A DNA stretch of 64,000 nt, taken from an uncultured Acidobacteriota bacterium. GTDB taxonomy: Bacteria; Acidobacteriota; Thermoanaerobaculia; UBA5066; Gp7-AA6. The translations under genes were made by a program, and so were the position numbers. Shown here piece after piece: positions 23,720-34,300 of the stretch; positions within the stretch are counted from its first letter, which is position 1, and every line of letters starts with the position of its first letter. Location of the stretch: contig CAVXTP010000001.1 of assembly GCA_963764715.1 (NCBI GenBank), forward strand, positions 1 through 64,000. Reading direction: 5' to 3'. The notes beneath the pieces are model-generated. The model saw nothing but the letters and a program-made list of their open reading frames with translations, was not told the origin of the DNA and searched no databases.

Positions 23720-24559
23720 CTACGGAGCCCACTCGGCCTCGACCGCCGGGGTCAGGCCCGCGGCGTGCGCCCGATCGAGCAGGGTCTGGACCGCCCGGCG
23801 GCCCGCCTCGCCGTACCCCTGCGTCCAGGCGTTAACGTACATCCCGACGAATCGGTCGGCCTTTTCCCGGGGGAGCCCCCGGGCGTACTTCATGGCGTGA
23901 TCGAGGGCCGCGCCGCGATGCGCCAGGCCGTACTCGATCGAGCGGGAGAGGGCGCGCGAGATGCGGCCGATCCGCTCGGCGCCGAGGTCCTTCCGGACGA
24001 CGTTGCCCCCGAGGGGAAGCGGCAGCCCGGTCTCCTCCTTCCACCAGCGGCCGAGGTCGACGATTTCCGTCAGCCCCTCGTCGCGGAAGGTGAGCTGGCC
24101 CTCGTGGATGAGCAGGCCCGCACGCTCCTCGCCCGACGCCACCGCCTCCTGGATCCGGTCGAAGGAGAGCGGGCGCATGCGAACGCCCGGCGCCCAGAGC
24201 TGGAGGGCGAGCGCCGCGGTCGTCCAGGGCCCGGGCGACGCGACGACGACGTCGCCGGCGGCGATCGCGGCGCGTTCGATCGGCTCGCGCGCGACGACGA
24301 CCGGCCCGTAGCCGTCGCCGAACGACGCGCCGTGGGGAAGGAGGAGGTAGCGGTCCGCCAGTCGCGTGTACGCGTGGAAGGACACGGCGGTGACGGCGAG
24401 CTCCCCGGCCATCGCGCGGCGGTTGAGCGACTCGATGTCGGACAGCTCGTGCGTGAACGCGAGGCCCTCGGTGTCGACGCGCCCCTCGGCGAGGGCGTAG
24501 AACATGAAGGCGTCGTCCGAGTCGGGACTGTGCGCGACGGTGATGGTCTCGGCGGTCAC
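23720..24559 (-). CDS. mqnD: 1,4-dihydroxy-6-naphthoate synthase (futalosine menaquinone pathway)
   Basis: HSPDSDDAFMF, GASFGDGYGP, GLLIHEGQL, GLPLPLGG, MYVN. Confidence 0.9.
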   Translation of the reverse strand: MTAETITVAHSPDSDDAFMFYALAEGRVDTEGLAFTHELSDIESLNRRAMAGELAVTAVSFHAYTRLADRYLLLPHGASFGDGYGPVVVAREPIERAAIAAGDVVVASPGPWTTAALALQLWAPGVRMRPLSFDRIQEAVASGEERAGLLIHEGQLTFRDEGLTEIVDLGRWWKEETGLPLPLGGNVVRKDLGAERIGRISRALSRSIEYGLAHRGAALDHAMKYARGLPREKADRFVGMYVNAWTQGYGEAGRRAVQTLLDRAHAAGLTPAVEAEWAP

Positions 24560-24691
24560 GGGTCGGATTCTAGTCGCAGCCGGCGACGCGCGGGCGCGTC
24601 GGGATCGCGGCCGGAGGAGACGCGAGGTCGCGCCGCGGGTCGCGGCGAGCCCGAAGTCGGGCTCCGGAGACGCCGCGGAGGTCGCGGCGAC

Positions 24692-24720
24692 TTGACTTGC
24701 GTCCCCGCGAACGCCACAAT
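24692..24720 (+). promoter_or_regulatory. Putative sigma70 promoter TTGACT-N17-CACAAT
   Basis: -35 at 24692-24697, -10 at 24715-24720; bracketed by the inverted repeat cttgactt/aagtcaag. Confidence 0.55.
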
Positions 24721-24944
24721 GAAGTCAAGAGCGATTGCAAGGAAAAATCTTGTACCAACGCGAGGGATGCTTCTAAAATCAAATCGCCGGCTGGGTTGCG
24801 GCCCAACCGGCGATTTTGACGAGCGTATGACCCATCAAACATTCGGCAGCGGCAGACTGAAGGCGATACGCCCTTTGACGGGGGCGGAAAAACTAGCATC
24901 TCGCCCGAGGGCTGTCAATTGGCTGTCGGGAGGGAGGTGACGTA

Positions 24945-25004
24945 ATGGCGACGAAGAAGAAGGCCGCGAAGAAGGCGAAGAAGGCTACCAAGAAGAAGAA
25001 GTAA
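24945..25004 (+). CDS. 19-aa Lys/Ala-rich basic mini-protein MATKKKAAKKAKKATKKKK
   Basis: Strong SD GGGAGGTGA just upstream, all 11 Lys codons are AAG, TAA stop, intrinsic terminator downstream. Confidence 0.75.
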   Translation: MATKKKAAKKAKKATKKKK

Positions 25005-25036
25005 GTCAACGACTTACGCTTCGAACACGGTTTCTC

Positions 25037-25062
25037 GGGGGCCCGCGGGCCCCCTTTTTTTT
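25037..25062 (+). terminator. Rho-independent terminator
   Basis: gggggccc-gc-gggccccc followed by T8. Confidence 0.88.
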
Positions 25063-25112: not shown

Positions 25113-25136
25113 GACTATATCTATGTTGATATAGTC
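25113..25136. promoter_or_regulatory. Perfect 9-bp inverted repeat GACTATATC-N6-GATATAGTC, probable PadR operator
   Basis: Ends 4 nt before the PadR GTG and overlaps a TATAGT -10-like box. Confidence 0.7.
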
Positions 25137-25140
25137 GGCC

Positions 25141-25716
25141 GTGTCCCTCCCCCACCTGCTCCTCGGGTTGCTCCACGCCGAGCCGCGCACGGGCTACGAT
25201 CTCGCGCGCGCGGTCCGCGACGAGGTCGACCCGGCGTGGAGCGCGGGCTACTCCCAGATCTACCCCGCCCTGGCGGGGCTGCGCCGCCGCGGGTGGGTCC
25301 TCCTCCGGACGCTGGGCCCCCGCCGCGGCCCCCCCCGCCTCCTCTACCGGGCGACCGCCGCCGGCCGCCGGGAGCTCCAGCGGTGGCTCGCGGAAGCTCC
25401 CCCGCCTCCCCGCCGCAACGACGCCATCCTCGCCCGGGTCGCGCTGCTCGACGCCCTCCCTCCCGCCGCCCGCGCCGGCGTCCTCTCGCGGCTCGCCGCG
25501 GTTCTCGCGGCGGAGGCCGACCGGCTCGAGGCGCTCGGCGCCGGCGAGGGGTCGCGCGGCTTCGCCCGGCGGGCCGCCGCGGCCGAGCGCCGGGGACTCG
25601 CGCTCTTCCTCGATCGCGGGGCCGCTCCCGCTCCCGCCGTCCGGCGCTCGGCGCTCTCCCGCCCCGGCTCGCCGCAAAGTCCTTCCGGCGCCCGCCGTCG
25701 GAAGTATCATCGGTAG
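25141..25716 (+). CDS. PadR family transcriptional regulator
   Basis: LLGLL..EPRTGYDL...W..GYSQIYPAL..L...GWV...Y..T.AGRREL.RWL. Confidence 0.85.
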   Translation: MSLPHLLLGLLHAEPRTGYDLARAVRDEVDPAWSAGYSQIYPALAGLRRRGWVLLRTLGPRRGPPRLLYRATAAGRRELQRWLAEAPPPPRRNDAILARVALLDALPPAARAGVLSRLAAVLAAEADRLEALGAGEGSRGFARRAAAAERRGLALFLDRGAAPAPAVRRSALSRPGSPQSPSGARRRKYHR

Positions 25717-30182: not shown

Positions 30183-30767
30183 CTACCTCTTCTTCAGGTC
30201 CATCAGGACCTGGCGCGCCACGGCCTTCAGGGTGTCGAAAACCCCGGCGCCGGTCGTGGCGACGGCTTCGAAGGTCGGCTCCCGCTTGATGTTGAGGCGC
30301 CGGTACATCTCGTCGGCCGCCATCGAGGTCGGCAGGTCCCGCTTGTTGAACTGCAGGACGTACGGCACGTTGGCGATGTCGTAGCCCTGCTCCTTGAGGT
30401 TCTTGTCGAGGTTGCGGATCGACTCGATGTTGGCTTCGAGGCGCGCCTCCTGCGAGTCGGCCACGAAGACGACGCCGTCGACGCCCTTGAGGATCAGCTT
30501 GCGCGAGGCGTCGTAGAAGACCTGGCCGGGGACGGTGTAGAGGTGGAACCGGGTCTTGAAGCCCTTGACCGTGCCGAGGTCGAGCGGCAGGAAATCGAAG
30601 AAGAGCGTGCGGTCGGTCTCGGTCGCGAGCGAGATCAGCTTGCCCTTGGCCGAGGGATTCGTGCGGTCGTAGATGTACTGGAGGTTCGTCGTCTTCCCGC
30701 AGAGGCCGGGGCCGTAATAGACGATCTTGCAGTTGATCTCCCGGGCCGCGTAATTGATGAACGTCAT
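30183..30767 (-). CDS. mglA: Small Ras-like GTPase MglA
   Basis: [38 protein letters not shown]. Confidence 0.95.
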
Positions 30768-30805
30768 GAGGGTGCCATCGCCCGCCGATCCCGGCCGTCC
30801 GCCGC

Positions 30806-31306
30806 CTACTCCGAGAAGAGGCGGTCGATGTCCTCGTCCGTGATCTCGGCGAAGGGCGAGTCGAAGTCGGCCTGGAGCGCCTGCTTCTCCTTCTCGGCCT
30901 TGCGGGCGATGTCCTGGAAGATGGTCTCGAGCTCGGCCATGGCCCGGCGGACGCGCAGGCGCACGAGCCCGAGGGAGGTCCGCTCGTCGAAGATCACGAC
31001 GAGGATGACGCGCTGCGCCACGATCGAGATGTGGATGTTGTCGCGCTCGCCCTCGTGGAAGAGGATCGAGAACTCCTTCTCTCCGATCAGCCGGGCGAGG
31101 CCGTCGGTGGCGGCGACGTTGCCGGCGGTCAGGGAAGCGAGGGAGGTCGTGTCGAGCGTCGTGAGGTCGCCGACGGCCGCGATCTGCTGGCCGTTCTTGT
31201 CCACCAGGAAGACCACGTTCGCGTTGGCGTCGGACGCCAGGCGGTGGAGCGATTCCTTGATCTTCCGGAATTCCTCGTCGTAGAGGACGAGGTCAGGCAG
31301 CGTCAT
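30806..31306 (-). CDS. mglB: Roadblock/LC7 GAP MglB
   Basis: [48 protein letters not shown]. Confidence 0.94.
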
Positions 31307-34169: not shown

Positions 34170-34300
34170 CCGGCGGCCGAAGATGAGCTCAGGTTGACCT
34201 GCGGCGCACGGTGGCGCCTCCTGATCGCTGCTTCCTTCCGGACCTGACGAGGTTCGGAGACTTCCGTCGCACAGGGCCCGAACTCATCTTCCGCCGCCGG
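34170..34300 (-). ncRNA. ffs: Signal recognition particle RNA (4.5S)
   Basis: Minus strand carries TCAGGTCCGGAAGGAAGCAGC inside a long hairpin with complementary ends; upstream of dnaX. Exact ends uncertain. Confidence 0.92.

Follow-up and report, generated by a model that had tools for sequence, protein, structure and literature searches.

In Chlamydia, the Lys-rich, H1-like protein HctA (Hc1) condenses the nucleoid and stops growth when expressed unchecked in E. coli, and the small RNA IhtA represses it by blocking translation and rescues growth (PMC3469542, PMC4355289). In hok/Sok/mok and ldr/Rdl/ldrX, the antisense gene lies inside a long 5' leader and leaves the Shine-Dalgarno sequence (SD) uncovered, the mRNA has alternative SD-hiding folds, and translation of the mok or ldrX leader ORF may matter rather than its product (PMC9841398, PMC4147584, PMC8594479). 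The string 'Acidobacter' is absent from the main text of PMC8594479, which sets out the layouts of type I families. Lys-rich tails with KKAAK-type spacing are described for Hc2/BpH1 (PF07382, PMC2848022) and for AlgP and PhaF (PMC9239181); KPAA peptides of AlgP bind DNA, and the K/A/P tail of AlgP acts at polyphosphate granules (PMC9239181). No published description of the locus or peptide family reported below was found; supplementary small-protein or RNA-motif catalogues could list it.

The locus, a mini-gene with its leader in the window (the whole 64,000-nucleotide stretch analysed), resembles each of these systems in part. Our best explanation, which we hold to be about evenly balanced between right and wrong, is that it is a single-copy gene for an H1-tail-like polycation under cis-antisense translational control in a hok/Sok-like layout. 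As with HctA and IhtA, a Lys-rich H1-like protein would be paired with a small RNA that blocks its translation, both the antisense RNA and the repression being predicted here. IhtA is trans-encoded, whereas the predicted RNA of this locus is cis-antisense. Hc1 has a conserved dimerising N-domain (PMC2848022), whereas the mini-gene protein consists only of a 19-aa tail. As in hok/Sok/mok and ldr/Rdl/ldrX, sequence signatures point to an antisense gene that has a promoter and a terminator of its own and lies within the mRNA, 5' of the ORF, leaving the SD uncovered; alternative SD-hiding folds are predicted, and there is a candidate leader ORF whose translation, not product, may matter. Unlike Hok and Ldr, the cargo is a soluble polycation and not a hydrophobic membrane peptide, judging from the composition of 89 ORFs. 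The mini-gene mRNA differs from that of hok in lacking a 5'-3' fold-back (long-range pairing with z below -2 was found in 1 of 89 loci, which we count as none), and, unlike hok/Sok and ldr/Rdl, the locus exists as a single copy in a fixed position. It has no sequence match above the gathering score to known Rfam antitoxins. The features are listed in Table 1. An earlier sequence-only reading overlooked both the opposite-strand promoter and terminator signatures in the leader and the predicted switchable leader itself; the mini-gene appears to carry a hitherto undescribed layer of RNA control.

Table 1. Features of the mini-gene locus, in window positions; promoters, folds and RNAs are predictions.
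Feature	Position	Strand	Remarks
mqnD-type gene (PF02621), divergent neighbour	23720..24572	-	own leaderless-type -10 box 24572-24567
Predicted promoter P1 (TTGACT-17-CACAAT)	24692..24720	+	family 1; 35/35 genus loci
Predicted promoter P2 (TTGTAC-18-TAAAAT)	24750..24779	+	predicted start ~24785; counterpart in all three families
Predicted cis-antisense small RNA	24774..24885	-	~110 nt; fold z -3.84
Predicted antisense-RNA terminator	24774..24816	-	hairpin, then U-rich run
Candidate mok-like leader ORF, 37 codons	24827..24940	+	stop TGA inside SD
Predicted 'ON' rod of mRNA leader (helices P1 and P2)	24845..24927	+	SD left free
Antisense promoter signature	24890..24918	-	TTGACA 24918-24913, 17-nt spacer, extended TG 24898-24897, -10 TAGTTT 24895-24890
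Predicted alternative 'OFF' hairpin pairing SD	24897..24939	+	
Shine-Dalgarno GGAGGTGA of mini-gene	24933..24940	+	its TGA is also the stop of the leader ORF
Mini-gene ORF	24945..25004	+	19 aa, 11 Lys, zero acidic or aromatic residues
Small inverted repeat across mini-gene stop	25001..25017	+	family 1 only; not a core part
Intrinsic terminator of mini-gene	25037..25062	+	7-bp GC stem 25037-25054, then 8-T run
padR -10 box and operator-like palindrome	25113..25136	+	padR 25141-25716, PF03551

Judged from its sequence and that of its relatives, the mini-gene is real, and its ORF is almost certainly translated. It is the only ORF with at least 30% Lys among the 19,391 ATG-started ORFs of 10–50 aa in the whole genome, 803 of which are preceded by an SD-like word. 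The sequence-only reading had pointed to a 19-aa ORF with 11 Lys, a near-perfect SD and a strong intrinsic terminator, and all three were borne out; the SD is invariant in 66 of 66 aligned leaders. The hairpin that it saw over the stop is present, but it is exact in only 35 of 60 family-1 loci and in 0 of 29 loci of the two other families. All Lys codons are indeed AAG, as it had remarked, but this carries no weight, since AAG makes up 15,639 of the 17,247 Lys codons in the genome's long ORFs and such usage is therefore expected; among the relatives, AAA occurs at 74 of 985 Lys codons.

BLAST with the intergenic region returned full-strength matches in 34 of 36 genus genomes (the two without a match are 73% and 89% complete), and homologous ORFs of 18–28 aa were present in all three families of the order. 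These relatives are Acidobacteriota, mostly Thermoanaerobaculia. Conservation of ORF and SD, on which the earlier proposal had been made to depend, was thus observed, and the synteny with mqnD that it had proposed as a check was found as well: in 89 of 91 loci the mini-gene is flanked by a divergent mqnD-type gene on one side and padR on the other, and the two remaining loci end at a contig edge. (Counts over 89 loci leave out L140 and L141, which lack full ORFs; rows L051 and L052, which are not this locus, were dropped, as were L053 and L054, which duplicate L141 and L140 in contig-cut form.) The variable columns of the 45 nineteen-aa ORFs comprised 13 third positions vs 4 first and 3 second. 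Lys positions changed only between AAG and AAA, ORF lengths (57–87 nt) differed solely by whole codons, and the stops were all TAA or TAG. The 250 bases upstream of the mini-gene are as conserved as the gene. Over the 89 ORFs the composition was K, A, T, M, S, G and P with three V and one R, a Lys:Arg ratio of 985:1, and the peptide pattern was KK-AA/AT/GG-KK in only 3–5 units. Both neighbours, padR and mqnD, look leaderless (25113-25141 and 24559-24572); the padR -10 box stood 5–7 nt ahead of its start in the loci inspected, and the palindrome overlapping it may be padR's own operator.

The antisense promoter signature consists of TTGACA 26–31 nt upstream of the mini-gene ATG, a spacer of 17–18 nt, TG and a TAnnTT hexamer. 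It was present in 51 of the 53 loci collected by BLAST, the remaining two being cut by contig ends; the 91-locus set was chosen partly on this motif. The -35 and the TG were invariant, while the spacer was 17 or 18 nt and seven different TAnnTT hexamers occurred, with variation in the spacer and in the hexamer's middle bases but not at the promoter-critical bases. Joined to the SD, the pattern was found in 71 of 74 order genomes (a tally that takes in one unpublished genome, G064). Elsewhere in the class it occurred in 8 of 226 genomes, and in none of these 8 did a Lys-rich ORF follow. Sites of this quality numbered three in the whole 4.36-Mb genome. The other two strong extended -10 sites (C8 near 2916 and C16 near 1902) are identical in sequence and probably represent one repeated element. 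Both promoter P2 and the antisense promoter were missed by the promoter scanner owing to its 4-of-6 rule.

The minus strand also carries a terminator signature ~100 nt downstream of the antisense promoter. Among the non-Watson-Crick oppositions in its stem, the G·U sign was minus in 65 vs plus in 16, and the mean T content of the 10 nt following the hairpin was 6.2–8.1 on the minus side vs 1.1–3.3 on the plus side, favouring the minus strand in all families. Within family 2, this stem showed two-sided changes at 9 of 14 pairs. Families 1 and 3 had a further G·U-rich helix that formed only in the minus-strand consensus (-24.1 vs -18.1 kcal/mol); 96% of its cells were paired, and on four of five measures none of 500 shuffles scored as high. 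The predicted RNA complements the mRNA over the latter's first ~100 nt and does not reach the SD; the overlap between predicted sense and antisense starts was 94–101 nt in families 1 and 3 and 127–156 nt in family 2. Conservation across families is highest in a segment that falls largely in the loop region of the antisense RNA and complements the 5' arm of the mRNA rod. We conclude that this anatomy is best read as a small antisense RNA, which is very probably made. No Rfam family scored above its gathering score at the locus, and weak PtaRNA1 and PhrS matches spanned only a hairpin or a terminator. The YUNR loop motif occurred in part of families 1 and 2, was not found in family 3 and was not used. 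A reading of the locus as 6S RNA was dropped because the rod measures only ~85 nt and the conserved words fit a DNA promoter. RF00013 (6S RNA) had no match at E up to 1 in this genome, which is 96.8% complete.

We then considered the folds of the mRNA leader. G·U pairs of the rod helices fit the plus strand, and the antisense RNA does not extend over the 3' arms of these helices; the mRNA and antisense folds carry opposite strand signs in the sequence comparison. The outer rod helix P1 kept 5 of 5 pairs in all 89 leaders, and covariation in the rod rests on few independent changes, with one two-sided pair (family 3) and kin that are not independent. The MAFFT alignment misplaced the family-2 5' arms, and the rod helices were therefore tallied by motif anchors. 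With the antisense-covered part blocked in folding, the rise in the cost of opening the ribosome site exceeded 0.5 kcal in 74 of 89 mRNAs but in only 24 of 37 genus loci. In all 22 loci compared with dinucleotide shuffles, native relief lay above the shuffle mean, and in 13 of them no more than 1 of 30 shuffles reached it; at the window's own locus the predicted switch is weak (0.7 kcal, 8/30 shuffles as high). The sequence-only reading had proposed high expression; these predictions suggest that mini-gene output is regulated rather than constitutive.

The leader ORF was present in 56 of 60 family-1 loci, 7 of 7 family-3 loci (38 codons) and 2 of 24 family-2 loci. Its changes were synonymous in 9 cases and otherwise in 72, a product without protein-level selection; in family 1 a second leader frame is also stop-free. 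The ATG is conserved no more than the bases beside it and may be kept for reasons of RNA structure. On these grounds we rate the chance that the mok-like ORF is genuine as about even or less.

Part of the stretch was contained in 20 of 24 sequencing runs, and 11 of these 20 are recorded as RNA. In a comparison of four runs, near-identical RNA-library contigs covered 24742-24976 (X4) and 24841-25027 (X7), whereas two contigs of depth ~2 (X1 and X2) ran across the mini-gene terminator, as would fit DNA carry-over; the RNA-library contigs may be of that origin. Such contigs give no strand, ends or level, and small word shares were not used for habitat or level.

According to the preferred explanation, in the absence of antisense RNA the leader rod would tie up the anti-SD and the peptide would be made; in two families, ribosomes on the 37-codon leader ORF, stopping inside the SD, might help this ON state. 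When antisense RNA is present, the 5' arm of the rod and the start of the leader ORF would be covered, the SD hairpin would form and the RNA duplex would be broken down. Mutual interference between the two convergent promoters, which are ~110 bp apart, may contribute as well. We consider it more likely than not that the antisense RNA represses the peptide. The peptide would bind DNA, RNA or polyphosphate without sequence specificity, and could compact or protect the polyanion under stress or dormancy, its mistimed production harming growth. By analogy with the basic tails cited above, the peptide is probably a polyanion-coating factor. The sequence-only reading had proposed a protamine- or H1-like nucleoid or ribosome-binding peptide. 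Conservation and composition uphold a stand-alone, H1-tail-like basic peptide, but not a protamine-like one, because of the Lys:Arg ratio. Its repeats of two basic plus three small residues resemble the pentamers of Hc2/BpH1 (PMC2848022), and composition and KKAAK-type spacing are shared with Hc2/BpH1 and with the AlgP and PhaF tails (PMC9239181); the mini-gene peptide differs from all of these in being about ten times shorter and in lacking a folded domain. A 137-aa class relative matched PF07382 weakly (16.3 bits, cut-off 40). None of 12 family members of 20–30 aa matched PF07382 or any other Pfam or NCBIfam profile, a result that limits membership rather than likeness, as short low-complexity peptides score poorly.

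Four other explanations were weighed. Production of an independent small RNA or an attenuated mqnD leader as the main product of the locus, with the mini-gene as an overlapping gene for a constitutive small basic protein, would account for the antisense RNA having its own conserved predicted fold, for the presence of mqnD farther downstream along the same strand in all 91 loci and, in family 3, for an mqnD that starts ~70 nt past the antisense terminator and has an SD but lacks a clear promoter of its own; the weakness of the predicted switch in the window's own genus points the same way. However, in 58 of 60 family-1 loci a leaderless-type -10 box belongs to mqnD itself, the best-conserved segment is the one complementing the 5' arm of the mRNA rod, and the alternative between anti-SD pairing and rod is kept in all three families; we regard this explanation as unlikely. 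Alternatively, the locus might be a true type I toxin-antitoxin, the peptide arresting growth by nucleic-acid condensation with the antisense RNA as antitoxin, in the service of persistence or anti-phage defence. The layout is that of Hok/Sok and of Ldr/Rdl, with the antisense gene inside the mRNA 5' of the ORF (PMC8594479), a mok/ldrX-like leader ORF is a candidate, and over-expressed HctA halts E. coli growth (PMC3469542). Against it stand a peptide without a hydrophobic helix, a locus that is not mobile, an mRNA that does not fold back on itself, the existence of relatives without an antisense promoter, and the viral contigs, where 0 of 24 and 0 of 23 pattern matches corresponded to the module. 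We therefore consider a toxin-antitoxin improbable.

The peptide could instead be a small ribosome- or RNA-bound factor or a polyphosphate-granule factor and not a nucleoid protein, with regulation as in our best explanation. Small ribosome-bound factors include bS22, bTHX and eL41. The very strong SD and the short basic sequence would suit such a role, as would the action of the AlgP tail at polyphosphate granules (PMC9239181), but a PDB sequence search with the peptide alignment gave no match, repeat expansion stretches the length from 12 up to 148 aa within the phylum, and the order's peptides are almost free of Arg. The length range and near-absence of Arg are easier to reconcile with a pattern of charge than with binding in a fixed ribosomal pocket, and such a factor seems to us rather improbable. 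The alternative raised by the sequence-only reading, a lysine-sensing leader peptide attenuating transcription into padR, drew on the position of a Lys-rich ORF ahead of a terminator and with padR next in 89 of 91 loci. It did not hold up well: a -10 box of its own precedes padR, together with an operator-like palindrome in 75 of 89 loci, the hairpin over the stop lacks conservation, no antiterminator was found among 11 folds inspected, the downstream genes (PadR and a 2Fe-2S subunit) are not those of lysine metabolism, and equivalent peptides stand alone elsewhere in the phylum with their own promoter and terminator. We consider attenuation very improbable.

We asked how far the module extends. 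Searching with the peptide-start pattern gave matches in 19 of the 201 phylum genomes and in 50 of the 251 class genomes covered. Outside the order, 17 of 31 loci examined were Lys-rich ORFs no longer than 50 aa (two being contig-cut), down to 12 aa, and others reached 148 aa via repeat expansion; many came with a TTGACA promoter and a terminator of their own and lay elsewhere in the genome. None of these 31 Lys-start genes had the antisense promoter. Such control is therefore dispensable for peptides outside the order, which weakens the step in the preferred explanation that the peptide is harmful if unchecked. The leader model, run over 141 phylum genomes, scored 78–92 bits within the order and at most 23 bits outside, and no Lys-rich ORF lay beside the 12 weak outside-order loci inspected. 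Similarly, none of the 18 non-Acidobacteriota matches among the 80 listed of at least 119 pattern matches had a Lys-rich ORF. As the leader model stays within the order and outside genes lack the antisense promoter, the sequences indicate that the Lys-rich peptide class is phylum-wide and the putative RNA switch is particular to the order.

Individual relatives varied in form. L278, L279, L280, L291 and L292 are stand-alone genes for 12–13-aa Lys-rich peptides with promoter, SD and terminator, and two such genes occur per genome in two genomes of one family. Stand-alone, repeat-expanded versions of 80–148 aa were seen in other families (L270, L276, L287, L086-L090 and L092). One phylum relative (L277:1284-1532, minus strand) encodes a protein of 83 aa: its N-terminal tail is rich in Lys, and after it comes a domain, without a Pfam match, that we take to resemble a bacterial histone fold.

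A bolder and more doubtful proposal would be that domestication of a hok/Sok-style switch (leader ORF, antisense RNA and SD-hiding refold) produced a core gene, present in single copy, that gates a 19-residue minimal linker histone and gives the order, made up of uncultured Acidobacteriota, an RNA-triggered switch for nucleoid compaction or dormancy, with the peptide belonging to an unannotated phylum-wide family of 12 to ~150 residues. If true, an RNA circuit of type I antitoxin kind would govern a chromatin-type effector in place of a membrane toxin, and the lower size limit of a histone-H1-like protein would be very low (19 aa here, 12 aa in relatives). None of six family members looked up was found among ~15 billion catalogued proteins (the 19-aa peptide itself is too short for that look-up), which points to a gap in gene calling. 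The module is shorter than 400 bp, so synthesis and testing in a laboratory host are feasible and the function of overlooked Lys-rich mini-genes is directly testable.

Some further observations were made in passing. Viral contigs L310 and L324, identical over 646 bases, carry a 20-aa Lys/Gly-rich mini-ORF with a strong SD and another ORF directly after it, a different module. Elsewhere in the window, a small GTPase and roadblock pair (PF00025, PF03259), presumably mglA/mglB-like, lies at 30183-31306 on the minus strand, and an SRP RNA gene, apart from the mini-gene locus, at 34184-34283 on the minus strand.
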